In this document: piece after piece, positions 44,998 through 61,110 of the stretch | How positions within the stretch are numbered: position 1 is the stretch's first letter | Layout: every line of letters starts with the position of its first letter | Assembly: GCA_000092065.1 (NCBI GenBank) | Contig: CP000581.1 | Source of the DNA: Ostreococcus lucimarinus | Lineage: Eukaryota | Length of the DNA stretch: 64,000 bases | Strand: one strand, 5' to 3' | Program-made: the position numbers and the translations under genes | The notes under the pieces: model-generated | What the model was told of the DNA's origin: nothing | Databases searched by the model: none | Seen by the model: only the letters and a program-made list of their open reading frames with translations

Positions 44998-47163
44998 CTA
45001 TGATTTCGACGCGATCGTAAAGTGCTCGTGGCGCACGCGAGCGGCGTTCATGTCCTGTCGAAGCGCGGCGAGCGCGGCTTCCTTGACGACGTGACGAAGC
45101 TCGGCGCCCGTGTAACCGACGGCGACGCGAGCCAACGCGTCGAGATCGACGTCGTCGTCGAGCGTGACGTCGCGGGTGTGGACGCGTAACGCCTCTACGC
45201 GACCGATGAAGTCGAGTGGGGGAATCTCGAGCACTAAATCGAGTCTTCCTGGGCGCGTGAGCGCGGGATCGAGACTCTTCGGGCGGTTCGTCGTCGCCAT
45301 CACGAGCACGCCGCCCGCGGTAGAGGGCGCGGTCTCTAACCCATCCATCTCCGTCAAGAACACCGAAAGCAGGCGAGTGGCGACGTCGTGCGCGCCGTCC
45401 GACGCGCCGTCGCCGCGAGATCCGCACATACCGTCGATTTCGTCGAGAAGAAGAACCGCCGGCGCCGACTTGCGCGCCTTGGTAAACGTACTGCGAAGAA
45501 TCTTTTCACCTTCGCCCAAGTATTTGCTGAACACGTCCGCGGCGGAAAGCGCGATAACGGTCGCGCCCGATGCCGTGGCTGCGGCGCGCGCGAGCGTGGT
45601 CTTCGCGCATCCTGGAGGTCCGTGCAAAAGAATACCCTTTGGCGGTCGCAAGCCTAGACGCTTGAACGCGTCTGCGTGGTGCAACGGCCACTCTACCGCT
45701 TGTCTAAGCCGCTTCTTAACGTCGGCTAAACCGCCAATGTCATCCCACGTGATCGGCGGCAAATCGATCGCGACGCCACGCACGACGGACGCGCGCACGC
45801 GTGAGCGAGACGCTTGAAAATCAGCCATCGACACCGTCATCTCGCTGTCGCCGTCCTCGCGTCGATTTTGAATCGCACGCATCGCGGCTTCGCGGCAAAG
45901 CGCCGCGATATCTGCACCGCTGTACCCTTTACTATCGAAAGCGACGATGTCCAACGCGACATCGTCGGCGAGCGGAATCGACTTCGCGTGAAGTTTGAGG
46001 ATTTCTGCGCGCTCCATCGCGTTCGGTAGCGACAACTCAACCTCGCGATCGAATCTACCCGGTCGACGAAGCGCAGGATCGATGGCGTTCGGCCGACTCG
46101 TCGTGGCAACGACGGGAACGACGACCTCGTCAGACTCCCCTGCGCCGTCCATTAACGTCAAAAGCTGCGCCACGATTCTCGTCTCGTGCGCGCTCGTTTC
46201 TTGCCTCGTCGGACACAACACGTCGAGCTCATCGATCATGATCACGCACGGCGCGCCCTTCGTCACCTCTTTCCGCGCGCGTTCGAATATCTTACGCAAA
46301 CGCTTCTCGCTCTCACCCGCGTACGCGCCCACGATGTCCCCGCTACTCACCCCTAAAATCGTCGCCCCCGCCTCGGCCGCCACCGCGCGCACCGCCTCCG
46401 TCTTTCCCGTACCCGGCGGTCCATGCAAAAGTAAGCCTCGAGGAAACCGCACGCCGAGCCTTCGCGCTTCGCTCGCGTACCGCATCGGCCACACGATGGC
46501 TTGACGCAACGCGTTCAAAGCTTCATCGCACGCGACGACGCGCGTCTCCGCTCGAGCCGCCGCCGCGTCGCCGCTCGCCGCGCGTCCCGTCTCTTCATCC
46601 GCCCCGAGCATCTCAACGCGTTCGATCACCGTCGACGCCGTGATGCGCCACGTCACGCTCCTATCGTCGCTCCCTCGCACGCTCGGCTCGACGCGTTCGA
46701 CGACGACGCGCTCGCGTTCGCCGCCGCTCGTCGACGCCGACGCGCCGACGCGCACGACGCGTTCTCGCAATCCTCGCTCGAGCGCCGCCGGCGTCACGCT
46801 CACCGGCGCTCGCACGCGCACGCGTTCACACGCGATCGGTTTCGCGTCTAAACGCTCGATCGTGCCCTCGTACGCGTCGCGTTCGTCGAATTCTTTCGCA
46901 TTCGCATTCGCCGCCGAATCTGCCTCGCGCACGCTCGCGTCGATTTCTGCGCACAGCCCGGGCTTTTCGTCCCACGGCTCGAGCGCGCACAGGAAGACGA
47001 ACTCCTCGTCCGCGCCGTCGCCCGCGCGAGGGCGTCTGCGCAGGCGCACGCGCACGGGGGCGCCGAGCGGTAGACGCAGGGCGTCGACGACGTCGCGGGA
47101 ACATCGCGCGCGCTGGGCGCTCGAGCGCGCGATGCGCGCGACGTCGACGCGAACGACGTCCAT
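44998..47163 (-). CDS. type II AAA+ ATPase with tandem D1/D2 domains (AFG2/SPATA5/CDC48-like)
   Basis: D1 LLHGPPGTGKTEAV...VIMIDELDVLC. D2 LLHGPPGCAKTTLA...VLLLDEIDGMC. About 200-aa N-domain. First real ATG at 47163 (MDVVRV). Confidence 0.8.
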   Translation of the reverse strand: MDVVRVDVARIARSSAQRARCSRDVVDALRLPLGAPVRVRLRRRPRAGDGADEEFVFLCALEPWDEKPGLCAEIDASVREADSAANANAKEFDERDAYEGTIERLDAKPIACERVRVRAPVSVTPAALERGLRERVVRVGASASTSGGERERVVVERVEPSVRGSDDRSVTWRITASTVIERVEMLGADEETGRAASGDAAAARAETRVVACDEALNALRQAIVWPMRYASEARRLGVRFPRGLLLHGPPGTGKTEAVRAVAAEAGATILGVSSGDIVGAYAGESEKRLRKIFERARKEVTKGAPCVIMIDELDVLCPTRQETSAHETRIVAQLLTLMDGAGESDEVVVPVVATTSRPNAIDPALRRPGRFDREVELSLPNAMERAEILKLHAKSIPLADDVALDIVAFDSKGYSGADIAALCREAAMRAIQNRREDGDSEMTVSMADFQASRSRVRASVVRGVAIDLPPITWDDIGGLADVKKRLRQAVEWPLHHADAFKRLGLRPPKGILLHGPPGCAKTTLARAAATASGATVIALSAADVFSKYLGEGEKILRSTFTKARKSAPAVLLLDEIDGMCGSRGDGASDGAHDVATRLLSVFLTEMDGLETAPSTAGGVLVMATTNRPKSLDPALTRPGRLDLVLEIPPLDFIGRVEALRVHTRDVTLDDDVDLDALARVAVGYTGAELRHVVKEAALAALRQDMNAARVRHEHFTIASKS

Positions 47164-47279
47164 GCGAATGCGCACGCGCGCGACGCGCGATGGGGCGCGC
47201 GACGTCGTGTGGAGAGTGAAAGAATGAGTGTACGCTATTACACGCTGGAGAGCCGTCGCCTTCGCGAACGCGCTCGCGA

Positions 47280-50200
47280 TTACTTGTCCTCGTTCGACAT
47301 GTCGAGGAGCTGCGTGAAATAATCCACCGCGCTGGCTGCGGTTTTCTTCGTTTCGTTGGTGTTTGTCTTGCGCGTGATGACGCTGCGCAGGGATGAAATG
47401 GTCATCGATTTGACGACGTCTTCGGCTTCGACGTCTTGAACCGAAATACCCATGGACTCGGCGTATTTGGATTTGAGATCGTCGAGTTCGCCGGCCACTT
47501 TTTTGGACTCTTCGAGAACCTTGAGTTCTTCATCGCTCAGGTTCACAAAGTCGCGGAGACGCTTTTTGGCCTCGTCGAGGGAAACGCGGAGGCGCTTGAT
47601 CTCCACGGCGTACTCATCGCGTTCGGTTGCCGTCTGCTCAAACGAACGTTCGAGCGCAAGTCTGTCGGCCTCGAGCTGCTTTTCTCGATCGGAGACGCTA
47701 AGCCTGAGGCTCTTTTCGGCTTTAGACTTTTCTTCCGCGACGATTTTGAGCGCTTTTTCGCGACTCGCTTTGAGCGCCGCGTCCTTCGCCGCGATGGTGT
47801 CTCTCAGTCGTGCCTCGTACGATTCGCGAAGCTTGGCGATATCGATCTCGCTTCGCTCGCGAAGTTCCTTGAGACTCGCTTGAGTTTTGGCTATCTCTTC
47901 GGCGTAAGCGTCAGCGTCGCCACGTCTGCCGGTCGAGGTCGCAACTTCCTTCTCAACAATCTTTTCAACCTCAACAATCTTCTCGACGACCTTCTCGACT
48001 ATTTGCGGCGGTCCGCCTGTTTGCCCGGCGCGCTTTTCCGCGTCGCGCACAGCCCGTTGAAGCGTTTCAACTTCTTGACGGAAGTCTACGACTAGCTTAT
48101 CAAACTGCGCGTTGAATTTGGCTTCAATTTCCAGATCACGATCGTTGAGCATGTTTTCAAAGTTGGCAATTTTGGCCTTGAGTTTATCATTCGCCTTCTT
48201 CGCCGTCGCACGAAGCGCCGCTTCAGATTTTGAGCGTTCGGCGGCGGCGATGGCCAATTGATCGCGCAACGCCTTCTTCGCTGTGGTTTCCGCCTCTCTC
48301 AGAGCCGCGATATATTCACGCTGTGCCGCGAGCTTGGCACTCTCGGTGAGCTTCTTTGCCGCCGCGATTTCAGTGCGCAAAGTCTTTTCCATACGGTCGC
48401 GCTCCGCCTTCGCAGCTTCCATCGCGGACGCCAACTTCTGGTTCGCAATCTTCTCAGAGTTTGCGAGCTGATTTTCGAGTGTAGAAACTTTGGATTCCAA
48501 AGCCTTAAGCTTTGATTCGGATTCGATGCGCATTGCTTTCTCTACCGCCTCGATTTCAGCCTTTTGTGCCGTCTTAAATTCGCTCAGTTTCTTCACGGCG
48601 GCTTCAAGATCACGCTCGAGCGTCGCAACCTTGCTAGGCGATTGAGCGGGCTTGCTCTTCTGTATGACTGACTCCGTCGGTGTAGACGCGTTCGTCTCCT
48701 TCATCGAGCGATTCGACGCGCCGAAGAGACGTTCAAAGAGCGAAGGCGCGGAAGTCTTCGCCGCTTCTTCAGCCGCCAACGCCGCTTCTTCAGCCGCCAA
48801 CGCCGCATCTTCCTTCGCTTTCGTAGCTTCTTCCTTCGCTGCAAGCAACTGATCGCGCAAAGTAACCATTTCACTTTGCGCCGCACGAAGCTTACGCTCG
48901 GCGTCTTCGCGCGCGGCTCGTTCAGCTGCAACCTTGCCTTTGTTGAATTCAAAGAGAGGGCGCTGAACGGAGGTTTCCGATACCACCTTCGATGACGAAG
49001 ATTGCTTCTTTGCGACATCGAGTTCATCAGTGAGTGCACCAACGCGTTGCTCATAAAAGGCGATCTTCTCTGCGAGAGTTACTTGCTCGGATTTCAATCT
49101 TCGCTCGAAGTCTTCCTTCATCAAAAGCATCGAACGGGACCATTTCGCCTCCGCTTCGGCAAACTCGGCCTGAACACTCGCAAGTCGATACTGGACATTC
49201 TCCATTTTCTTCGCCTGTTCCGCATAATCCCTGTGCGCACGTCTGATTTGCTTCTCAAGTTCGCGTTCGCGTGACTTGAGTTGCTTGTTCATTAGCTGCG
49301 CCGAGTCTCGTACGCGTTCTTTGAAGTCTTCGCGCAACGCGGCGAGAAGAACTTCAACCTCTCGCGTGTGCTCCTTGCTTTCTTGAATCTTTTGGTTGAA
49401 TTCTAAAGTAGCATCAGCCATTGTTTGAGCGACAGCGCGAACGATCTCGTCATTGTGCTTTTCCTTCATCGCGTTCATTTCAGAAATTCTAGAACCCAAC
49501 ATCGCCTGACTATTTTGATACTTGACCAAAATATCTGCTCGTTCGGATTCAAGACTGCGCACATTCGCTTCGTCGGCCTGAACACTCGCAAGTCGATACT
49601 GGACATTCTCCATTTTCTTCGCCTGTTCCGCATAATCCCTGTGCGCACGTCTGATTTGCTTCTCAAGTTCGCGTTCGCGTGACTTGAGTTGCTTGTTCAT
49701 TAGCTGCGCCGAGTCTCGCACGCGTTCTTTGAAGTCTTCGCGCAACGCGGCGAGAAGAACTTCAACCTCTCGCGTGTGCTCCTTGCTTTCTTGAATCTTT
49801 TGGTTGAATTCTAAAGTAGCATCAGCCGTTGTTTGAGCGACAGCGCGAACGATCTCGTCATTGTGCTTTTCCTTCATCGCGTTCATTTCAGAAATTCTAG
49901 AACCCAACATCGCCTGACTATTTTGATACTTGACCAAAATATCTGCTCGTTCGGATTCAAGACTGCGCACATTCGCTTCGTACGACTTTGCTTGATCTTT
50001 CCAAGCAACGGAGTCGAATTGCCATGCGTCACGTTCTTGCTCCAACTTGGCCATTTTACGAAGCATTTGTGCGACGGCAGCAGTCATCTCGTCATCCTCA
50101 TCAAACGACGCCGAGGCGTTTTCGGTAAGTCGCGCCAAATCGAGCGCATACTTTGTCTCTGCGTCGGCAACCGCACGTTCTCGCTCTTCGTTCAGGCGCG

Positions 50201-53200
50201 CCACGGTTACCGCGAGCTGTTCTTGAGCATCAGCTTGGAGCTTGGCGATGGCTGCGACGGTATCATCGCCGCTTTTAAGCTTGGACTCAAGCTCGGAGAT
50301 GCGTTGCTTGTACTCTTTGACAGTGGTTTCACTCTCGGCGGCAAAAGTAGAAGATGCGTTACTGACGGCGTCCTTCAACTCTGCTTTGAGTGCCGCGATT
50401 TCATTCGCTGAAGCTGAACTTTTTTGTTCAAACTCCAATGTCAGACGCGATATTTCCTCACGAAGCTTGACTTCGCGCTCTTGCGCATCGCGTGCTTCAG
50501 TCTCTGCAGCTGATAACAGCACAGTTTGATCTTTGATCTGAGCATTTACAGCATCAAGGGACGCGTCCTGTCCCTGGGAAGCGCCGATGATGCTAGCAAA
50601 AATTCCACCTCGATCGCCTTTCGCCTTGTCCAAAACAGCCTTGTATTTCTCTTCAGCCTTTTGCATGCCCTTGCGAGCTTTTTCTAGTTCCTTTTCTAGT
50701 CGTCGCTCGGAATCCAGCTTCTCAGACTGTAGTCTTGTCGTGACCGATAGCACATCTTGATCACGCTCAGCGCGGACGGCTTTGATTTGCGCTTCCAAGT
50801 CGAAGATATGCTTTTCCACGTCCGGGCTGCTCCTCTTAGCTTGCGTAGCGAACTCCGCTTCAAGTTTCTCAAGCTTTTCTTGAAGCGCGTCGCGCTGCTT
50901 CTTGAGACGCTTGACTTCGCCAGTGCTTCCCTCGAACTTGTACGTGACAGATTGGGGAAGGGTGTACTTAACTACACTCTTCTCACGCTTTTGCTGTTGT
51001 TTGCGTTTAAACGCATCCAACTCCTTGCGAGCCTCAGTGACTTCAAGCCTGAGCTCTGCTTCCGTCTCCGTCGCCGTGCGCTTGAGAGTCTTATTGAGCT
51101 TCTTTATCGTCGATTCGTAACCTTCGGAAACCTCTTCTAGTTGAAGTTCCAGTCGCTTGACTGTCGCCTCGTACTCCGCGGCGATTTCATCAGCCTGTAT
51201 CTTCGCAGACCTCTCAACTTCTTCGAGTTTTGCTTTCCACAAGTCCTCAGCTTGCTTTACCTTTGTAGTTTCATCGCTCGCGAGAGAAGTTTTCATGGCG
51301 TTTTGCAGGGTCTCGATCTCGAGAGTCTGAGCCGTGATCAGCGCCTCTTTTTCTTCTTGGAAGAGCTTTGACTCCTGCGATACGCGGTCATCCGCTTCCG
51401 ACTTGACCAAAGCAACCAACGCTACTCGATCAGCCTCCGCTGACGCCTGAATTTCAGCGACGGCTTGGATAAGCTCTCGTTCGGCGCTTTCGTTGGCATC
51501 GGCGAGTTGCTTCTTCAGAGCTGCAACTTGGTCATCAATCGTAGCGGTCTCTGTGTCCGTTTTCGACGTCGATTTCATGTTCGCGATAGTTTGCTCGTAG
51601 AGCCGCTTGGACTTTTGCATCTCGTCAAGTTGGGATTCAAGGCGTGTGACTTGCGCTTGAAGCGCGTCGCGCTCCTTCTCTAGCGATGCATCTACCTTGT
51701 TGCCAGTAAACTTATATGTCACTGTTTGAGGCAGCGTGTACTTGATGCCACCCTTACTTTTTTGCTTGAGGTCTTCGAGGTCCTTTTTCGTCGATTCGAC
51801 TCGTTTTCTAAGTTCACTTTCGCTAGACTTAGATGCTGCGAGCTGCGCTTTAATTTTCTTCATCTCATCGTCGTCACTCGACACCCACGCAGTAGAAGAT
51901 TGAAGCGCATCAATTTTACCTTGATACTCTTGCTTCAACCGATCAATCTGTGCATCCTTGGCTGCTTCGACCTCACGAATCTTCTGTTCCCAGAAAATAG
52001 ATGATTGAGCCTCGGCAGTGGCTACCTCAGCCGTGAACTCAACCATAGCGTCTGCGGACTGTTTTATCGCTTCGTTTCGCATCATCGCATACAGCGCGCG
52101 GCGCTCGCCAGCGCTTGAACGAGACGAAGCGTCGCGTTGCGCCAGCTCGGAAGACGCAAAGGCCTGAATACTAGCGACGGCCTCGACGAGATGCTCCTCG
52201 GCGATGGCTTTTTGCTCTTGCAAACGCCACGACTGCTCAGACAGCTGCTTCTTGAGATCCAGGATCATGGCATCCTTCGCCGCTGACTCGTCGCTCCCAG
52301 CGGTCGTCGCCGCGGGCACGGCGGGCGCCGCGCGTGCAGACGCCTTGAGTGACTCAATCTTCGCGTCATACTCTCGCTTGGTCTTCTGCATTTCCGTCAG
52401 CTGCGACTCGAGCGCGCTGATCTTGGCCTGCTGAGCCTTCATCAGCTTGTCGTCCGTGGAACCGCCCTCGAATGTGTACTTGATAAACTGCGGAAGTGTG
52501 TACTTCACACCGTTCTTCGACGCAGTCTTGAGCGACTGAAGTTCGGCTTTCGCCGCGTCGACTTGACCTCGGAGTTCGAGTTCGATCGACGAGCGCTTGG
52601 AGAGCTGCGCCTGCAGGTCGGACACGACGCTCGAGAGACCATCACTACCAGACGCCTTGGACATTGATGCCTTGAGCTCCTCGAGTTCACGCAGCGATGC
52701 GTCGAGCTGCGCCTTCTCGGCCGCCGCCGCCGCTTGCAGCTTGGCATTATCAGCGAGGATCGTCGCGACAGCCGCCTCAACTTGCTCTTCGGCATCGTTT
52801 TCGGCATCCTGCAGCTTCTTGTTGAGGGCGTCGATTTCGGCGCTTCTGTCAGAAACACCGGTCGTAGTGCTCGCCTTACTGGCCGCCCGGACTCGTTCGA
52901 TCTCTTCGTTGTGTGCCTTCTTCAGAGCAACCACGCGCTGCTCAAACTGAATCTGCGCGTCACGAATGGCGTCGTTCACTTGAGCGCTCGTGTCCACAGG
53001 TGAACCGGACGACGCGCGCAATGACGCCTCCAGCTGTTCGTTCTCAGCCTTGAGCTCAGCGACGGCCTCGACGAGCTGCTCCTCGGCGATGGCTTTTTGC
53101 TCTTGCAAACGCCACGACTGCTCAGACAGCTGCTTCTTGAGATCCAGGATCATGGCATCCTTCGCCGCTGACTCGTCGCTCCCAGCGGTCGTCGCCGCGG

Positions 53201-56200
53201 GCACGGCGGGCGCCGCGCGTGCAGACGCCTTGAGTGACTCAATCTTCGCGTCATACTCTCGCTTGGTCTTCTGCATTTCCGTCAGCTGCGACTCGAGCGC
53301 GCTGATCTTGGCCTGCTGAGCCTTCATCAGCTTGTCGTCCGTGGAACCGCCCTCGAATGTGTACTTGATAAACTGCGGAAGTGTGTACTTCACACCGTTC
53401 TTCGACGCAGTCTTGAGCGACTGAAGTTCGGCTTTCGCCGCGTCGACTTGACCTCGGAGTTCGAGTTCGATCGACGAGCGCTTGGAGAGCTGCGCCTGCA
53501 GGTCGGACACGACGCTCGAGAGACCATCACTACCAGACGCCTTGGACATTGATGCCTTGAGCTCCTCGAGTTCACGCAGCGATGCGTCGAGCTGCGCCTT
53601 CTCGGCCGCCGCCGCCGCTTGCAGCTTGGCATTATCAGCGAGGATCGTCGCGACAGCCGCCTCAACTTGCTCTTCGGCATCGTTTTCGGCATCCTGCAGC
53701 TTCTTGTTGAGGGCGTCGATTTCGGCGCTTCTGTCAGAAACACCGGTCGTAGTGCTCGCCTTACTGGCCGCCCGGACTCGTTCGATCTCTTCGTTGTGTG
53801 CCTTCTTCAGAGCAACCACGCGCTGCTCAAACTGAATCTGCGCGTCACGAATGGCGTCGTTCACTTGAGCGCTCGTGTCCACAGGTGAACCGGACGACGC
53901 GCGCAATGACGCCTCCAGCTGTTCGTTCTCAGCCTTGAGCTCAGCGACGGCCTCGACGAGCTGCTCCTCGGCGATGGCTTTTTGCTCTTGCAAACGCCAC
54001 GACTGCTCAGACAGCTGCTTCTTGAGATCCAGGATCATGGCATCCTTCGCCGCTGACTCGTCGCTCCCAGCGGTCGTCGCCGCGGGCACGGCGGGCGCCG
54101 CGCGTGCAGACGCCTTGAGTGACTCAATCTTCGCGTCATACTCTCGCTTGGTCTTCTGCATTTCCGTCAGCTGCGACTCGAGCGCGCTGATCTTGGCCTC
54201 TAGCGCGTTAACATTCGCAGTGTTTTCCGGTGTTTTTCTAGACGTGTCTTCGAATTTGTAAGTAATGCTTTCCGGCGAAGTGTACTTGACGGTCTGCTGT
54301 GCGGATGCTATCTGATTTCGGAGATCACGCTCAACTTCGGTTCGCTCGCGCAGCTGCCGCTGGAGCTCCGTAATCTCCGCCGACACGTCCACGCCCGGTG
54401 TGTCTGATTTGATTAAAGCCTTCAGCTCTTCGAGCTCGCACAGGGACGCGTCGAGCTGCGACTTTGCAGCGTCAACCGCGGCTTGCAGCCGGTCTTTATC
54501 AGCAACGATTTCCGCTACCGCGCGCTTTACTGCCTCTTCGCGTTCTTTTTGCGCATCTTCCAACTGCTTATTGAGCGCGGCGACCTGCGCGTCCACATCT
54601 TTGCTACTACTCGAGCTGGATGAGGCTTGTAAATCCGCAATCTTTTGTTCGTACGACTGCCTGAGCTGCTTCAGCTGTGCATCCTTCATGAGCTCAACGT
54701 CCTTGATCTTTTTCTCCCAGTATGCAGGAGATTCCACAGCGTGGGTGCTGGCCTTACTGGCCGCCCGGACTCGTTCGATCTCTTCGTTGTGCGCCTTCTT
54801 CAGAGCAACCACGCGCTGCTCAAACTGAATCTGCGCGTCACGAATGGCGTCGTTCAGCTGAACTCTTGCTTCGGCAGTTGAGCTGGACGATGCGCGCAAT
54901 GAAGCCTCCAGCTGTTCGTTCTCAGCCTTGAGCTCAGCGACGGCCTCGACGAGCTGCTCCTCGGCAATTGCCATGTTCTCAGACAGCTGCTTCTTGAGAT
55001 CTATGATTTCTTCGTTAGCGTCAAACTGGTTCAATCTCTTAACCGCCTCGGCGCGCATCATTTTGTACATCGCGTTACGTTCTCCAGTTGTGGATTTAAG
55101 AGCTGACTCGAGTTGTACCTTGCTAGCTTCAGCAAGCGACTGGATTTCAGCAACCGCTCGAACGAGCATATCATCATACATCTCCTTGAGCGTAGTTACA
55201 TCCTGTTTTACCGCGTCCTGCTCTGAAGCAAGATTCGATTTAACGTTGATGCGCTCGGCTTCAAACTGTGCGAGAAGCTGAGCTTTTGACGCTTCACTCT
55301 CGTTCAACTTGGAGATAGCGTCACGTGCGCGATCCTCCGCTTGCGTGACTCTTCTATCCGACTCTCTACGTGCGTCTTCTAATGCTGTCGCGTGAGCAGC
55401 GGCTGTAGTCTGTATCGCCATCTGATGCGCCTGTTCGAGGGCTTTTATTTTGGCTGGTGCGTCATCCTTCGTCGCGCTCCTTTTAAGGCGCTCTAGCTCT
55501 TCGTTGTGCGCCTTCTTCAGAGCAACCACACGCTGCTCAAACTGGATCTGCGCGTCACGAATGGCGTCGTTCATCTTCTTGCTACTCGAAACTTCGCTTA
55601 TGGCAACTTCACTTTGAAGCCGCGTCAAAGTTCGCTCGCTCGCTTTGCGCATCTCAGAGTCGAACATCGACTTGAGCGCACGACGCTCGCCCGCAACTCC
55701 ACGCACAGCTTCGTCACGAACTGCGTCAACGTCCACGTCGTTTCGCATTTCGACCGGAGATACCGCGACCTGAGATTTCTTTGAAACCTTGACTCGTTCG
55801 ATCTCTTCGTTGTGCGCCTTCTTCAGAGCAACCACGCGCTGCTCAAAGTTAAGCTGCTCCTCACGGAGTGCCGCGTTAAATTGATCGACGCTCAGCGCGC
55901 TCTGGCTCGGCTTTGAGGCGTTACTCGCCTTGACTCGTTCGATCTCTTCGTTGTGCGCCTTCTTCAGAGCAACCACGCGCTGCTCAAAGTTAAGCTGCTC
56001 CTCACGGAGTGCCGCGTTAAATTGATCGACGCTCAGCGCGCTCTGGCTCGGCTTTGAGGCGTTACTCGCCTTGACTCGTTCGATCTCTTCGTTGTGCGCC
56101 TTCTTCAGAGCAACCACGCGCTGCTCAAATTTAAGCTGCTCCTCACGGAGTGCCGCGTTGAATTGATCGACGCTCAGCGCGCTCTGGCTCGGCTTTGAGG

Positions 56201-58307
56201 CGTTACTCGCCTTGACTCGTTCGATCTCTTCGCTGTGCGCCTTCTTCAGAGCAACCACGCGCTGTTCAAACTGGATCTGCGCGTCACGAATGGCATCGTT
56301 CGCTTGAGCGCTTACATCGACAACCGATGTGACTGGATCGGCGCGCTCAACTGGAGCGCCGCGCTCGATGTTGCGTCCAGGACTGGCCTTGTTCATCTCC
56401 GAATCAAGAAGCGCCTTTAGCGCTCGTCGCTCCCCAGCGGCACCGCGCATCGCGCTGTCGTACTTGGCCACGAGAGAGCTAATTTCAACTTCAGCCTCGG
56501 CACGTATTTCGGCAATCTTCGAAAGGAACTCGTCCTGAGTCGTCGAGTCACTGTCTTGAATCAGTCCCGCCACCGGCTCCCGTACTTTTGAGAGCGTGGC
56601 GGCAAAATCGGCCCGCTCTTTCACAATTCTCTCGCTATAAGACGCACAAATCGCTTTCAGTTGATCTTCGAGGAATGACAGGCGTTCTCCAGAGGTGACC
56701 TTCGCAAGAGCCAATTCTGACCGAAGCGTCGCCAGGTGCATGCGCTGCAGGTCACGTGATGCGCGATACTTGCTTGCTTCACTTCTTCCAAGTTCGCGTT
56801 CAGCGCGAATCAAGCCACGCGCGGCTCTAATTTCGATTTCATGACGCGTCGCCATAGATTTGTTCACCTCTTTCGCTTCGTGCAAAGCATCCTCAGCAAT
56901 ATTCAGCGCTTTCTCAAGCCTCTCGATGCTGCCCTTCAGCGTAACCTCTTGCGCGTGGAAGGCAGCTTCGTTTGCTTTGATGGCGGTTTCGTGCTCCTCT
57001 TTCATCTTTACGAGCACACGTTGAAGTTCTTCGGTGCTTTGTCCTCCCGCGCCGGCGCTTGAAAGCGAATCGATTTGCACATCCTTCATGTGGCGCTTGA
57101 AGTCGTCGTTCAGAGTCTTGAGGTTATCATTCTTCTCCTTCTTCATGGCGCCGAGCTTTTCGATTTCGGTTTCAAACTCCAGAATCATTGACTGCCGCAG
57201 TACTTCTAAGCGTCGCACCGCGCTACTATCGCTTTCCAAAGGCTGAGCAAGACTGGGCAAACGTTCCAATTTGGATCGCACTTTTTGCACGTCAACGCCA
57301 GAGCGAGAGATACCGAAGCCGATTGCCGCAGCGGCAACTGCAGCCGCAGACGCGATACCAGCTACCGCAGCGGTTTTTGCAACGACTGGCGGAAGCGCAT
57401 TATTGTGACGCAAAGTCATCGAGGTCGCATTTACCGCTGGTAAATTTTGAGCGAACGGGGCGACTGTTGCCGTTTTCACCACATTTTTTGGACGCTCAGC
57501 CACGATCGAGGTCGTCACCTGCGGCACAGTCGGCGACGCCGCGCGCCGATCGGCTGAAAAACTGTGTTTACCTCCGATAAGAGCCACGGCCGTCGCGATA
57601 CCACCGTAAATGAGCTTGGTCTCGGTATCGAATCTCTCAGTCGCGCGCATCATCGTCGTCGCGAGGGATGTCTGTTGTATTTTTTTCCGCACGATGGACG
57701 TCGTTTCTACCGTCTTCTTCACAATACTCGTCGTGGCCTTCATCCCAAGCGCCACGACTTCGTTCGCATCGCTCGATCGTTCGCATCGTTCGCATCGTTC
57801 GCATCGTTCGCATCGCTCGCATCCCTCGCCATCCTCATCGTCGTGCTCGTGCTCGTGCGATTCTTCGTACTCTTCGTACGCCTCGTCCGACATCCACGAG
57901 AACGACGCGAACCCGGGCGCGCTGTCGAACCCAGCCATACCAACTCTCCCCGCCCCCGGTCGCCGAACTTCACGCTCTTCGTCCTCGTCTTCCGCGCCCC
58001 CCCCGACCTCGAGCTCGAGCACTATCTCGTCCACGAGCTTGTATCCGCGAAAACTCGCCGTCCCGACGCCGTTTTCAAACATCGCGCGTCCGATCTCTCC
58101 CGGCTCGTCCCCTCGTCCCGCGCACGTCACCACGCGCCCGACTCGCATCGACGCCCTCCCGCGCGCGCTCGCCCGCGCGTCGCTCGCGCTCGCCCCTCGC
58201 GTCGCGTCGCCGCGCCGCTTCCCTCCCTCTCGCGTCGTCTCCCGCCGCCCCAGCGCGAGCGCGCCGCGCGCGCGCGTCGACATCACCCCGCGATCGACGA
58301 TCGCCAT
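47280..58307 (-). CDS. giant coiled-coil protein (3675 aa) with internal tandem repeats and possible N-terminal hydrophobic anchor. Start uncertain
   Basis: Uninterrupted 11 kb ORF; heptad-rich E/K/A/L/Q composition throughout. Recurring blocks QFEQRVVALKKAHNEEIERV and VKYTLPQ..YKFEG. N-terminal hydrophobic segments (LIYGGIATAVALIGG, AGIASAAAVAAAAIGFGI). CERCERCERCER tract. Real ATG at 58307, but downstream Mets (e.g. MFENG) are also possible. Confidence 0.7.
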   Translation of the reverse strand: MAIVDRGVMSTRARGALALGRRETTREGGKRRGDATRGASASDARASARGRASMRVGRVVTCAGRGDEPGEIGRAMFENGVGTASFRGYKLVDEIVLELEVGGGAEDEDEEREVRRPGAGRVGMAGFDSAPGFASFSWMSDEAYEEYEESHEHEHDDEDGEGCERCERCERCERCERSSDANEVVALGMKATTSIVKKTVETTSIVRKKIQQTSLATTMMRATERFDTETKLIYGGIATAVALIGGKHSFSADRRAASPTVPQVTTSIVAERPKNVVKTATVAPFAQNLPAVNATSMTLRHNNALPPVVAKTAAVAGIASAAAVAAAAIGFGISRSGVDVQKVRSKLERLPSLAQPLESDSSAVRRLEVLRQSMILEFETEIEKLGAMKKEKNDNLKTLNDDFKRHMKDVQIDSLSSAGAGGQSTEELQRVLVKMKEEHETAIKANEAAFHAQEVTLKGSIERLEKALNIAEDALHEAKEVNKSMATRHEIEIRAARGLIRAERELGRSEASKYRASRDLQRMHLATLRSELALAKVTSGERLSFLEDQLKAICASYSERIVKERADFAATLSKVREPVAGLIQDSDSTTQDEFLSKIAEIRAEAEVEISSLVAKYDSAMRGAAGERRALKALLDSEMNKASPGRNIERGAPVERADPVTSVVDVSAQANDAIRDAQIQFEQRVVALKKAHSEEIERVKASNASKPSQSALSVDQFNAALREEQLKFEQRVVALKKAHNEEIERVKASNASKPSQSALSVDQFNAALREEQLNFEQRVVALKKAHNEEIERVKASNASKPSQSALSVDQFNAALREEQLNFEQRVVALKKAHNEEIERVKVSKKSQVAVSPVEMRNDVDVDAVRDEAVRGVAGERRALKSMFDSEMRKASERTLTRLQSEVAISEVSSSKKMNDAIRDAQIQFEQRVVALKKAHNEELERLKRSATKDDAPAKIKALEQAHQMAIQTTAAAHATALEDARRESDRRVTQAEDRARDAISKLNESEASKAQLLAQFEAERINVKSNLASEQDAVKQDVTTLKEMYDDMLVRAVAEIQSLAEASKVQLESALKSTTGERNAMYKMMRAEAVKRLNQFDANEEIIDLKKQLSENMAIAEEQLVEAVAELKAENEQLEASLRASSSSTAEARVQLNDAIRDAQIQFEQRVVALKKAHNEEIERVRAASKASTHAVESPAYWEKKIKDVELMKDAQLKQLRQSYEQKIADLQASSSSSSSKDVDAQVAALNKQLEDAQKEREEAVKRAVAEIVADKDRLQAAVDAAKSQLDASLCELEELKALIKSDTPGVDVSAEITELQRQLRERTEVERDLRNQIASAQQTVKYTSPESITYKFEDTSRKTPENTANVNALEAKISALESQLTEMQKTKREYDAKIESLKASARAAPAVPAATTAGSDESAAKDAMILDLKKQLSEQSWRLQEQKAIAEEQLVEAVAELKAENEQLEASLRASSGSPVDTSAQVNDAIRDAQIQFEQRVVALKKAHNEEIERVRAASKASTTTGVSDRSAEIDALNKKLQDAENDAEEQVEAAVATILADNAKLQAAAAAEKAQLDASLRELEELKASMSKASGSDGLSSVVSDLQAQLSKRSSIELELRGQVDAAKAELQSLKTASKNGVKYTLPQFIKYTFEGGSTDDKLMKAQQAKISALESQLTEMQKTKREYDAKIESLKASARAAPAVPAATTAGSDESAAKDAMILDLKKQLSEQSWRLQEQKAIAEEQLVEAVAELKAENEQLEASLRASSGSPVDTSAQVNDAIRDAQIQFEQRVVALKKAHNEEIERVRAASKASTTTGVSDRSAEIDALNKKLQDAENDAEEQVEAAVATILADNAKLQAAAAAEKAQLDASLRELEELKASMSKASGSDGLSSVVSDLQAQLSKRSSIELELRGQVDAAKAELQSLKTASKNGVKYTLPQFIKYTFEGGSTDDKLMKAQQAKISALESQLTEMQKTKREYDAKIESLKASARAAPAVPAATTAGSDESAAKDAMILDLKKQLSEQSWRLQEQKAIAEEHLVEAVASIQAFASSELAQRDASSRSSAGERRALYAMMRNEAIKQSADAMVEFTAEVATAEAQSSIFWEQKIREVEAAKDAQIDRLKQEYQGKIDALQSSTAWVSSDDDEMKKIKAQLAASKSSESELRKRVESTKKDLEDLKQKSKGGIKYTLPQTVTYKFTGNKVDASLEKERDALQAQVTRLESQLDEMQKSKRLYEQTIANMKSTSKTDTETATIDDQVAALKKQLADANESAERELIQAVAEIQASAEADRVALVALVKSEADDRVSQESKLFQEEKEALITAQTLEIETLQNAMKTSLASDETTKVKQAEDLWKAKLEEVERSAKIQADEIAAEYEATVKRLELQLEEVSEGYESTIKKLNKTLKRTATETEAELRLEVTEARKELDAFKRKQQQKREKSVVKYTLPQSVTYKFEGSTGEVKRLKKQRDALQEKLEKLEAEFATQAKRSSPDVEKHIFDLEAQIKAVRAERDQDVLSVTTRLQSEKLDSERRLEKELEKARKGMQKAEEKYKAVLDKAKGDRGGIFASIIGASQGQDASLDAVNAQIKDQTVLLSAAETEARDAQEREVKLREEISRLTLEFEQKSSASANEIAALKAELKDAVSNASSTFAAESETTVKEYKQRISELESKLKSGDDTVAAIAKLQADAQEQLAVTVARLNEERERAVADAETKYALDLARLTENASASFDEDDEMTAAVAQMLRKMAKLEQERDAWQFDSVAWKDQAKSYEANVRSLESERADILVKYQNSQAMLGSRISEMNAMKEKHNDEIVRAVAQTTADATLEFNQKIQESKEHTREVEVLLAALREDFKERVRDSAQLMNKQLKSRERELEKQIRRAHRDYAEQAKKMENVQYRLASVQADEANVRSLESERADILVKYQNSQAMLGSRISEMNAMKEKHNDEIVRAVAQTMADATLEFNQKIQESKEHTREVEVLLAALREDFKERVRDSAQLMNKQLKSRERELEKQIRRAHRDYAEQAKKMENVQYRLASVQAEFAEAEAKWSRSMLLMKEDFERRLKSEQVTLAEKIAFYEQRVGALTDELDVAKKQSSSSKVVSETSVQRPLFEFNKGKVAAERAAREDAERKLRAAQSEMVTLRDQLLAAKEEATKAKEDAALAAEEAALAAEEAAKTSAPSLFERLFGASNRSMKETNASTPTESVIQKSKPAQSPSKVATLERDLEAAVKKLSEFKTAQKAEIEAVEKAMRIESESKLKALESKVSTLENQLANSEKIANQKLASAMEAAKAERDRMEKTLRTEIAAAKKLTESAKLAAQREYIAALREAETTAKKALRDQLAIAAAERSKSEAALRATAKKANDKLKAKIANFENMLNDRDLEIEAKFNAQFDKLVVDFRQEVETLQRAVRDAEKRAGQTGGPPQIVEKVVEKIVEVEKIVEKEVATSTGRRGDADAYAEEIAKTQASLKELRERSEIDIAKLRESYEARLRDTIAAKDAALKASREKALKIVAEEKSKAEKSLRLSVSDREKQLEADRLALERSFEQTATERDEYAVEIKRLRVSLDEAKKRLRDFVNLSDEELKVLEESKKVAGELDDLKSKYAESMGISVQDVEAEDVVKSMTISSLRSVITRKTNTNETKKTAASAVDYFTQLLDMSNEDK
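49167..49980. repeat. 408-bp tandem duplication (2 copies) inside the giant coiled-coil gene
   Basis: Copies starting at about 49167 and 49575 read near-identically (..ggcctgaacactcgcaagtcgatactggacattctccattttcttcgcctgttccgcataatccctgtgcgc..). Duplicated six-frame ORFs 49002/49425/49833 share sequence. Confidence 0.8.
52176..54198. repeat. 885-bp tandem repeat, 2 full copies plus about 250-bp partial third, essentially identical, inside the giant coiled-coil gene
   Basis: Identical six-frame ORFs offset by exactly 885 nt (52204/53089/53974; 52505/53390; 52597/53482; 52734/53619). Direct reading confirms identity from cgacggcctcgacgag onward. Confidence 0.9.
55788..56350. repeat. 141-bp tandem repeat (about 4 copies), each encoding a 47-aa unit FEQRVVALKKAHNEEIERVKASNASKPSQSALSVDQFNAALREEQL(K/N)
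   Basis: cttgactcgttcgatctcttcgttgtgcgccttcttcagagcaaccacgcgctgctcaaa recurs at about 55788, 55929, 56070 and 56211. Confidence 0.85.
57761..57825. repeat. 9-bp repeat (CGTTCGCAT)x5-6, encoding (CER)n on the minus strand in the giant gene N-terminal region
   Basis: Direct reading: cgttcgcatcgttcgcatcgttcgcatcgttcgcatcgctcgcatc. Confidence 0.85.
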
Positions 58308-58797: not shown

Positions 58798-61110
58798 ATG
58801 GCGACGACGACGACGATGCGCGTCGCGGACGCGAGAGGCGCGATGACGCGAGGCGGCGCGCGATGCGCGCGACGCGCGACGGCGCGACGCGCGACGCGCG
58901 CGACGGCGCGACGCGCGACGGTGGCGAACGCGGGGCAGACGATGTACGATAAAATCATCGACGACCACCGCGTGCGAACGCAGGACGACGGGACGCTGCT
59001 GCTGTACATCGATCGACACATGATACACGAGGTGACGTCGCCGCAAGCGTTCGAGGGGCTGCGAACGGCGGGACGGGCGGTGCGACGACCGGATAACACG
59101 CTGGCGACGGTGGATCACAACGTGCCCACGAGCGACCGGAGCGGGTTCGAGAGCGCGGAGACGTTCATCAAGGAGATGGACTCTCGCGTGCAGGTGTTGC
59201 AGCTGGAGGAGAACGTGGAGGAGTTTGGGGTGACGTATTTCGGGATGGACGATAAGAGACAGGGGATCGTGCACATCATCGGACCGGAACAGGGGTTCAC
59301 GCTGCCGGGGACGACGGTGGTGTGCGGGGACTCGCACACGGCGACGCACGGCGCGTTCGGGGCGCTGGCGTTCGGAATCGGGACGAGCGAGGTCGAACAC
59401 GTGCTCGCGACGCAGACGTTGTTGCAAAAGCCGTCGAAGAATATGCGAATCACGATCGATGGGAAGCTCGGAGATGGGGTGACGAGTAAGGATATTATTT
59501 TGCACATCATCGGCGTCATCGGCACGGCGGGCGGAAACGGCTCCGTGATTGAATTCGCGGGCGAAGCCATTCGCTCGCTCTCCATGGAGGCGCGAATGAG
59601 TATTTGTAACATGGCCATTGAAGGTGGGGCGCGCGCGGGTATGATTGCCCCGGATGAGATCACGTTCGAGTACCTCAAGGGTCGTCCGATGTCGCCTCGA
59701 GGGGAGACGTGGAATCGCGCGGTCGAGTACTGGAAGTCTCTCGCCTCCGACGCGGATTCCAAGTACGATCGCGAGATCGTTATTCCGGCGTCCGATATCG
59801 AACCCACGGTGACTTGGGGGACGTCCCCGCAAGATGTCGTTGGGATTTCGGGCATCGTTCCCGATCCGAAGGACTTCGACGAGGCGCGCGGCAAGTCGAT
59901 GCAACGCGCGCTCGATTACATGGGTCTGACCCCGGGCACTAAGATGCAAGATGTCGTCGTCGACAAGGTGTTCGTCGGCTCGTGCACGAACGGTCGCATC
60001 GAAGACGTGCGCGCGGTCGCCGCGGTGGCCAAAGGTAGAAAGGTTGCCGACAACGTGTACGCCATGGTCGTCCCGGGTTCGGGCATCGTCAAGGAGCAAG
60101 CCGAAGCCGAAGGCTTGGACGTCATCCTCAAGGAAGCTGGCTTCGACTGGCGCGAGCCCGGTTGCTCGATGTGTTTGGCAATGAACCCGGATAAGTTGCT
60201 TCCGGGCGAACGCTGCGCGTCAACCTCCAACCGTAACTTTGAAGGTCGTCAAGGCAACGGCGGTCGCACGCACTTGATGTCGCCGGCGATGGCTGCCGCC
60301 GCGGCCATCACGGGTAAGCTTTGCGACGTCCGCACCCTCGGCTCTGGCGCTGTCTTGACCGGCGAAGATGCTCCGGGTAAGCTCGAAAGCAAGGACTTCT
60401 TATCGGACGCCTTGGTCACTTCCCCGCCGCCGCAAAAGAAGGACAACGGTCCGGCGGGCGCGGGCGGCATGGCCAAGTTTACCACCTTGAAGGGTGTAGC
60501 CGCGGCCATGGAACTTCAGAACATCGACACCGATATGATCATCCCCAAGCAATTCTTGAAGACGATCAAGCGCACCGGCCTCGGAGTCTCTGCGTTTTAC
60601 GAAATGCGTTACGACGAGCAAGGCGTCGAACGCCCGGATTTCGTGTTGAACAACGAGCCGTACCGCAACGCCTCCATTTTGGTCGCCGGTAACAATTTTG
60701 GTTGCGGGTCTTCTCGTGAGCACGCGCCGTGGGCGATTAATGACTTCGGCATTCGATGCATCATCTCCACCGCCTTTGCCGACATCTTCTTCAACAACTG
60801 CTTCAAGAACGCCATGTTGCCAATCGTTCTCGACGAAGCCACCGTGAACACGCTCATGGCGGACGCCAACGCCAAGCAAGAGCTCGAAATCGACTTGCCG
60901 AACCAAGTCGTCATTCGATCAAACGGCGAGAAGATTCCATTCGAAGTCGACGAGTTCCGCAAGCACTGCTTGATCAACGGCTTGGACGACATCGGCTTGA
61001 CGATGCAGCAAGACGCCGACATCGCCGCGTTCGAGGCCAAGCGCACCGAAAACTTCCCGTGGCTCAACGGCGCCGGCTACGTCCAAGGCAGCGCCACCCC
61101 GGCGCGTTAA
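58798..61110 (+). CDS. LEU1: 3-isopropylmalate dehydratase, fused large+small subunits (LeuC-LeuD, LEU1-type) with organellar presequence
   Basis: [11 protein letters not shown]...[21 protein letters not shown]...[33 protein letters not shown] (LeuC, aconitase-family Fe-S ligand region). C-terminal [35 protein letters not shown]...[23 protein letters not shown] (LeuD). Single ORF of 770 aa. Real ATG. Confidence 0.9.

Follow-up and report, generated by a model that had tools for sequence, protein, structure and literature searches.

Interruptions of long coiled coils

Several kinds of discontinuity are described in long coiled coils. Linkers and hinges include L1 and L12 of the intermediate filaments and the breaks in golgins, myosin and SMC-type rods. 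Insertions of four, three or one residue within a continuous alpha-helix are termed stutters, stammers and skip residues, respectively. The binding motif of the light chain LC8, another point of comparison, consists of a T-Q-T anchor triplet within an eight-residue beta-strand. The element considered here is a 15-residue motif that interrupts the coiled coil of a giant protein of Ostreococcus lucimarinus, encoded in a stretch of 64,000 nucleotides (nt) from contig CP000581.1 (assembly GCA_000092065.1), which is called the window below. The motif occurs five times in the protein, is retained by most of its known relatives and is non-helical in both structure predictions, and the proposal of an earlier note, that it represents a conserved non-helical interruption of the coiled coil, therefore holds.

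The nearest concept is that of the beta-layer in alpha/beta coiled coils. As described by Hartmann et al. (2016, eLife 5:e11861, PMC4786415), beta-layers result from heptad insertions of two or six residues, occur in parallel trimers and contain three-residue strands. The two elements are alike in that short, conserved segments of beta type (putatively so in our case) recurrently interrupt a coiled coil, after which the supercoil resumes. They differ in their dimensions: here 18-21 residues are non-helical, around a core of 15, and a Pro turn lies between two putative strands of five residues each. The insertion length that defines a beta-layer is therefore not the one found here.

As with the linkers of long rods, the breaks occur at conserved positions and divide the rod into segments, and these positions are more conserved than the flanking heptads. 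Known linkers, in contrast, are usually poorly conserved in sequence or specific to a family, and we know of none with a sequence of the VKYTLPxxVTYKFEG type. The periodic discontinuity of the heptad pattern is a feature shared with stutters, stammers and skip residues, but the motif is predicted to be non-helical and contains both Pro and Gly. Among its 14 unique 15-residue variants, Pro6 is found in 13 and Gly15 in 12, and the helix is broken in two AlphaFold constructs. LC8 sites resemble it as short beta-prone motifs repeated in variable number along a coiled-coil or disordered scaffold; the conserved stretch of the present motif is, however, about twice as long. The TQT anchor is absent among the 14 variants, in which positions 6-8 read P-[EQK]-[SFT] and the Q is replaced by E or K in ten. 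A profile search of the sequences in PDB gave no counterpart of the motif: the best matches (E ≥ 0.0026) scored through the coiled-coil flanks, and the residues aligned with the motif columns, in the three alignments printed, did not resemble it. In kind, the motif is another conserved non-helical interruption of a long coiled coil, while its sequence and the organisation of the cassette around it appear to be undescribed.

Recurrence of the motif in the giant protein

The giant protein of 3,675 amino acids (aa) is encoded by an uninterrupted open reading frame on the minus strand (47280..58307). The consensus of the motif in this protein is [VI]KYT[LS]P[QE]x[IV][KT]Y[KT]F[ET][GD]. The regular expression KYT.P...[KT]Y.F, run on the whole protein, matched exactly five times, with starts at aa 1341, 1640, 1935, 2189 and 2447. 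Read along the protein, and all on the minus strand, these are copy 1 (VKYTSPESITYKFED, aa 1340-1354, 54246..54290), copy 2 (VKYTLPQFIKYTFEG, aa 1639-1653, 53349..53393), copy 3 (an exact duplicate of copy 2, VKYTLPQFIKYTFEG, aa 1934-1948, 52464..52508), copy 4 (IKYTLPQTVTYKFTG, aa 2188-2202, 51702..51746) and copy 5 (VKYTLPQSVTYKFEG, aa 2446-2460, 50928..50972). The chance expectation from composition is 7.6e-8, and 20,000 shuffles produced no match. A profile hidden Markov model (HMM) built from the 14 unique variants revealed no further degenerate copies in the giant protein or its orthologues. The recurrence of at least five copies that had been read from the sequence earlier is thus confirmed in its strings and positions. 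The context then ascribed to the motif is less uniform: a Lys/Ser-rich turn precedes four of the five copies, copy 1 having IASAQQT in its place, and the acidic stretch said to follow can be recognised only loosely, the residues there being rich in Gly, Ser and Thr and of mixed charge.

The five copies lie in register within a super-repeat (50748..54710, minus strand, about aa 1200-2520), which tile BLAST and a motif-centred alignment divide into five units of 254-299 aa, with spacings of 299, 295, 254 and 258 aa between the motifs. Each unit proceeds from a helix (E.ELR.QV) through a linker to the motif, and from there into a second helix (ALQ.K...LE.QL.EMQK), a linker rich in Pro/Ala or Ser/Thr and further helices. 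Part of this region is an exact duplication. A unit of 885 nt (295 aa) is present in 2.27 copies (52192..54199, minus strand) that are 100% identical, positions 52192-53314 being repeated as 53077-54199 at an offset of 885 nt, and it carries motif copies 2 and 3. Because of the in-register super-repeat and this duplication, the motif copies are non-independent events, and the window holds four distinct versions of the motif.

The number of 885-nt units differs between assemblies of the host species. The 103-kb contig L002, from a strain 96% identical to the window, contains four units and seven motif copies; the remaining metagenome contigs of this species, as far as they cover the region, contain one unit or none, which gives four or three motif copies. 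The range per assembly is therefore 3-7 copies. The low unit numbers could be explained by the collapse of repeats in short-read assembly, so the copy number of the unit is either polymorphic or uncertain.

Conservation of the motif

The claim that the motif is more conserved than the adjacent heptads is borne out by the comparison of 45 pairs, drawn from ten unique copies in four orthologue lineages. The core of 15 residues has a mean pairwise identity of 63%, compared with 30% for the 60-residue flanks on each side. The four distinct copies of the window share 8-12 of 15 residues in pairwise comparison, with half or more of the shared residues (4-8) encoded by different codons, and their nucleotide identity is only 56-78%. 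Since identical residues often differ in codon and the identity of the core lies far above that of the flanks, the sequences indicate that the amino-acid identity of the motif is old and kept by purifying selection at the protein level. It is not, with the exception of copies 2 and 3, the product of recent duplication or gene conversion.

Within the variants, Y11 and F13 are invariant (14 of 14), and T4, L5, P6, T10 and G15 are kept in 12-13 of the 14. Residues K2, T4, T10 and K12, which would form the second face of a putative hairpin, are conserved in 10-13 variants. No insertion or deletion occurs inside the core in any of the 14.

Predicted structure and beta character

A simple a/d heptad score, which is 5-6 in the flanks, declines to 1-2 wherever a copy of the motif lies. 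Two copies were modelled with AlphaFold2, and in both models the coil coincides with the motif and comprises 18-21 non-helical residues. The construct of copy 2 (aa 1603-1696, 94 aa, alignment of four sequences) forms a helix at residues 2-34, a coil at 35-55 (NGVKYTLPQFIKYTFEGGSTD) and a helix at 56-93; the predicted local distance difference test (pLDDT) is 53-61 in the coil versus about 90 in the best-predicted helical blocks. In the construct of copy 5 (aa 2406-2505, 100 aa, alignment of ten sequences), the helices extend over residues 2-38 and 57-99 and are separated by a coil at 39-56 (SVVKYTLPQSVTYKFEGS), with pLDDT values of 65-71 averaged over the 10-residue blocks that cover it. The earlier note would have been contradicted by a motif lying inside a continuous predicted helix; the helix is instead broken exactly over the motif in both constructs.

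In its sequence, the motif is beta-prone. By beta-minus-alpha propensity on the Chou-Fasman scales, the five windows of the motif take ranks 1, 2, 3, 4 and 6 among all 15-mers of the rod, which is 3,325 residues long, and they hold 10 of its 42 Tyr residues. Hydrophobic residues occupy the odd positions with a period of two (V.Y.L and V.Y.F), on both sides of a central Pro turn and ahead of a terminal Gly. The motif is a pseudo-palindrome, VKYTL-P(E/Q)x-VTYKF.

A modular cassette

The motif is coupled by its spacing to the helix that follows it. In seven of ten copies, F13 lies 24 residues from the Leu that is conserved in this helix (KQRDALQxKVxxLE), whereas the distance to the upstream helix varies between 11 and 27 residues. 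Because the downstream spacing is fixed and the upstream spacing is variable, the functional unit would be a cassette of about 45 residues, composed of the motif, a Gly, a helix cap and the start of the next coiled-coil segment. After copy 5, this second half of the cassette, the conserved helix start, is STGEVKRLKKQRDALQEKLEK (50865..50927, minus strand). The fixed spacing of 24 residues suggests a coupling to the start of the next segment.

Cassettes differ in their distribution between orthologues. Copy 5 is the sole copy common to all four full-length proteins, and its flanks are the best conserved between species. At the site of copy 4, the motif and the following helix are found in the window protein and in P0006, and the whole block is missing from P0024 and P0010.

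Orthologues and relatives

Relatives were sought with a profile of the motif and about 40 flanking residues, which was compared by HMMER with 1.84 billion representative proteins at E ≤ 0.001. Nine matches were obtained. Six belong to the family of the giant protein and carry the motif; P0008, P0011 and P0012 were discarded as unrelated repeat proteins without it. The family members P0004, P0005 and P0009 are fragments from near-identical strains. P0006 (2,460 aa) contains three copies (IKYTLPESVTYKFEG, VKYTLPESVTYKFQG and VRYSMPESVTYKFQG), P0007 and its full-length cluster mate P0024 (2,930 aa) contain two (TVITLPKFVTYTFQG and VKYTLPESITYKFEG), and P0010 (2,033 aa) contains one degenerate copy (SKRTLAESITYSFKD), so that proteins of other lineages hold 1-3. 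Absence from orthologues, the other finding that would have contradicted the earlier proposal, is accordingly not what is observed.

The full-length members share an N-terminal domain, one or two hydrophobic segments and the C-terminal blocks FNAQFDKLV.DFR.EVE and VDYF.QLLDMS. In the window and in contigs L002, L019 and L020, the neighbour of the giant gene is a divergently placed aconitase gene, a synteny that persists between lineages with N-terminal domains of only 42% identity. On the basis of the common domain, the C-terminal blocks and the synteny, P0006, P0010, P0024 and the window protein are orthologues and form an unnamed family of N-terminally anchored giant coiled-coil proteins. 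P0003, encoded on contig L001 and 54% identical, was considered as an orthologue lacking copy 5. It is near-identical to P0006 until ...QLKSRQGST and then continues into a hydrophobic tail and a stop exactly at the third motif copy of P0006; the 980-nt contig was treated as truncated or chimeric.

A scan of JGI metagenomes with the pattern P[EQ][SF][VI]TY[KT]F[EQT] matched 51 stretches, 18 of which, from 16 distinct loci, encode a relative of the giant protein and add a few more variants. Only a handful of unnamed metagenome proteins were retrieved when aa 2100-2520 or the N-terminal domain served as the query of word-indexed searches. Relatives were found exclusively in metagenome assemblies (ENA, JGI, Logan and one 203-aa GOS fragment), and the cluster records give them no functional name, apart from one uninformative label on the GOS fragment. 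Literature searches brought up nothing relevant on a giant coiled-coil protein in Ostreococcus or Mamiellophyceae.

Structural reading of the motif and its alternatives

The reading that we favour, still tentatively, is that the motif forms a small structured knuckle of the beta-hairpin type, which breaks the coiled coil, leads into the next segment and provides a contact surface in a paired rod. Such a hairpin would consist of the strand V-K-Y-T-L, the turn P-(E/Q)-x, the strand (V/I)-T-Y-K-F and a Gly hinge. If its turn comprised three residues, V1/F13, Y3/Y11 and L5/V9 would be placed on one face and create an aromatic and aliphatic surface, while K2/K12 and T4/T10 would occupy the opposite face. 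In a paired rod, the hairpins of partner chains might pack through their hydrophobic faces, or each face might instead pack against the adjacent helices. Packed in this way, the chains would be clamped together where the downstream segment begins, and a conserved surface for protein-protein contacts would be repeated every 38-44 nm of the rod. The hairpin geometry, the pairing between chains and the contact role are conjectural, the geometry being drawn from the sequence alone. The idea of a beta-hairpin, already raised in the earlier note, fits the sequence with its period-2 hydrophobicity, Pro turn, Gly and top beta propensity.

Several observations weigh against the knuckle. The assignment by DSSP contains no beta strands in either AlphaFold2 model, and the confidence over the motif is moderate to low (pLDDT 53-71); both models are of monomers. 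A K/T swap at positions 10 and 12, considered as cross-strand covariation, was set aside, as it is confined to one orthologous copy lineage. Both putative faces are conserved, which a purely self-packing hairpin would not need and which hints at an external partner. The break also occurs without the motif. At the copy-1 site of P0024, the same two helices are joined by MLSSGAESDSE. The distant lineage represented solely by the 5-kb contig L021 (57% G+C, N-terminal domain 39% identical) has, within L021:2400-4955, at least four helix-break-helix units homologous to the super-repeat, in which unrelated Pro/Ser-rich linkers (ASSSDTN, NAPKPEPIIIEPTDKL and SEPRSEPSRGFSWPFRKKSSEGNTDDE) take the place of the motif; the contig stops short of the copy-5 site. 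Judged by these sites, the motif is dispensable for the helix break itself, and the break is the older, more general feature, in which the motif forms a specialised insert. The reading frame of L021 contains stops or frameshifts, which are probably assembly errors.

The principal alternative is multivalent docking: the motif would remain unfolded in the break and be bound by a separate protein or other ligand, through beta-strand addition or the Tyr/Tyr/Phe surface, the rod being a scaffold that displays 1-7 identical sites. We regard this as possible, if rather unlikely. The conservation of both faces would be explained by it, as would the low AlphaFold confidence, the lack of strands in the monomer models and the persistence of the break without the motif in another lineage, which makes the motif look like an add-on. 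The gain and loss of cassettes, with 1, 2 or 3 copies in other lineages and 3-7 within the host species, also agrees with docking. On the other hand, 15 contiguous conserved residues without indels are long for a linear motif, and structural coupling is suggested by the fixed distance to the helix downstream. The candidate site does not match the anchor of the LC8 dynein light chain. Phosphorylation of its Thr and Tyr residues, proposed in the earlier note as well, would make the motif a regulatory module that switches the conformation of the rod or the binding of a partner. Two Tyr and two to three Thr lie in an exposed break, Y11, alone among them, is invariant and position 4 is T or S in every variant. 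T10 is, however, replaced by K in two of the 14 variants and Y3 by I or R in three, and V, L, P, F and G are conserved just as strongly, in the manner of a fold rather than a kinase consensus; such a switch is very unlikely.

The suggestion that the motif is a stutter-like discontinuity, which fixes the phase between consecutive coiled-coil segments, has been weakened. The motif is located exactly between two heptad-bearing helices, and its downstream spacing is fixed, which speaks for such a role. The element is nevertheless 18-21 non-helical residues long and contains Pro and Gly, where an insertion of one, three or four residues in a continuous helix would be expected; of the seven possible remainders modulo 7, the upstream spacings of 11-27 residues yield all but 2 and 3; and homologous breaks are bridged by unrelated linkers of different length. 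For an element of such length, which includes Pro and Gly and lies at varying distances from the upstream helix, a role in setting register is improbable. A history of recent tandem duplication or homogenisation, in which the motif would recur as a by-product without a specific function, accounts for copies 2 and 3 with their exact 885-nt duplication and for the variation of unit number between assemblies. The remaining copies, though, are about 30% identical in their flanks and 53-80% in the motif, many synonymous differences separate them, and the motif is retained in divergent orthologues. These comparisons leave the neutral account largely refuted and hardly credible.

The hairpin-type knuckle may also be extended into a bolder form, in which the cassette is a hitherto undescribed, autonomous alpha/beta coiled-coil element. 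Two paired hairpins would then form a clasp, a four-stranded mini-sheet across the rod axis, with a docking platform every 38-44 nm. The conserved Tyr/Tyr/Phe and Thr/Lys faces would act as this platform on a membrane-anchored molecular ruler. Such a rod would possibly be organellar, given that the orthologue N-termini resemble targeting presequences, and the naming of proteins or glucans as the ligands of the platform is pure speculation. As a whole, this extension is doubtful.

The giant protein and its genomic setting

The giant protein begins with an Arg/Ala-rich N-terminus, followed by the conserved N-terminal domain, one or two hydrophobic segments and about 3,300 aa of mostly coiled coil. 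A comparison of all 3,675 aa with Pfam-A gave no family at E ≤ 0.1. The conserved domain (57303..58130, minus strand) includes GE[IV]GRAMFE.GVG.ASFRG.K, GAGRVGMAGFDS.PGFASFSWMS and a His/Asp/Glu patch, and the hydrophobic segments after it lie at aa 232-250 (Kyte-Doolittle 1.16) and aa 315-333 (Kyte-Doolittle 2.05). The protein is a lineage-restricted, probably membrane-anchored coiled-coil protein. In the alignment of N-termini, the orthologues are rich in Arg, Ala and Ser ahead of the conserved domain; from this feature and the hydrophobic segment at aa 315-333 we infer that an organelle-targeted, membrane-anchored rod is plausible. A likeness to the plant thylakoid- or starch-associated coiled-coil proteins MFP1 and MRC has no sequence support and is not claimed.

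Further conserved elements are present in the protein. A second recurrent element (FEQRVVALKKAH; NDAIRDAQIQFEQRVVALKKAHNEEIER) occurs eight times, at aa 680, 727, 774, 821, 923, 1162, 1493 and 1788 (minus-strand reading frame; 55489-56310, 54772-54859, 53779-53866 and 52894-52981). It is helical in character, is also found in P0006, P0010 and P0024, and is conserved at the DNA level to a greater extent than the VKYTLP motif; it includes a 141-nt tandem array of 3.4 copies that are 98% identical (55787-56270). A third recurrent block, (A/S)GERRAL(K/Y)(A/S)(L/M)..SE, is found three times in the rod (56418-56435, 55674-55691 and 52092-52109) and is kept in the same three orthologues. Short non-heptad blocks are conserved across orthologues at 50577-50612 (aa 2566-2577), 48714-48743 and 48921-48962. 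The block RGGIFASIIGAS corresponds to SGFFSNMFGGS, GGWRFGLFGRG and RGFWSSVFKGN in other lineages, and SLFERLFGAS and RPLFEFNKGKVAAE are further examples. These Gly/aromatic-rich blocks could be additional joints or membrane-touching patches.

Two other repeats lie in the same reading frame. Within an acidic, His-rich N-terminal patch, a 9-nt repeat of 7.2 copies (57760-57823) encodes CERCERCERCERCER; the strain of contig L002 has DEHEDEDEDGE at this site, and the repeat is therefore a coding microsatellite that is polymorphic between strains. A 408-nt tandem duplication (49165-49981, 2.0 copies, 99% identical) gives two units of 136 aa (aa 2777-3048) in the C-terminal half of the rod.

The window is eukaryotic and gene-dense, with visible introns mostly absent and about 60% G+C. 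This setting, together with relatives found in metagenomes, would fit a picoalga of the Mamiellophyceae type. Its genes include those of a DENN-WD40 protein, a prenyltransferase alpha subunit, an AFG1 ATPase, aconitase, a double-AAA ATPase and polyphosphate kinase. The aconitase gene (58798-61110, plus strand) stands directly upstream of the giant gene in divergent orientation. The polyphosphate kinase gene (39475-42282, minus strand) encodes a complete bacterial-type PPK1 with all four Pfam domains in this otherwise eukaryotic window, and it is also present in the syntenic contig L002. Across the giant gene (46001-58000), the AT skew of the plus strand is strongly negative (-0.16 to -0.26) and the GC skew is negative, because the minus coding strand is purine-rich, with Lys, Glu, Gln and Ala codons.

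Significance for the protein family

In coiled-coil rods that otherwise lack features, it is the conserved non-helical elements that carry information, since they mark hinges, assembly contacts or docking sites. The motif offers a concrete handle on an uncharacterised protein of very narrow distribution, with six related clusters among the 1.84 billion representative proteins, which is among the largest of a genome of the minimal picoeukaryote type. If the hairpin clasp is true, it would be a dimer-compatible counterpart to the beta-layers of trimeric coiled coils and could serve protein design as a compact module. If the motif is a docking site, the variable copy number (1-3 in other lineages, 3-7 in assemblies of the host species) would tune the valency of the rod. 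Otherwise, the motif would be a lineage-specific linker of local interest only. All in all, the motif probably serves the giant rod as a small structured joint or as a contact site, one that is new in its sequence and ordinary in kind.

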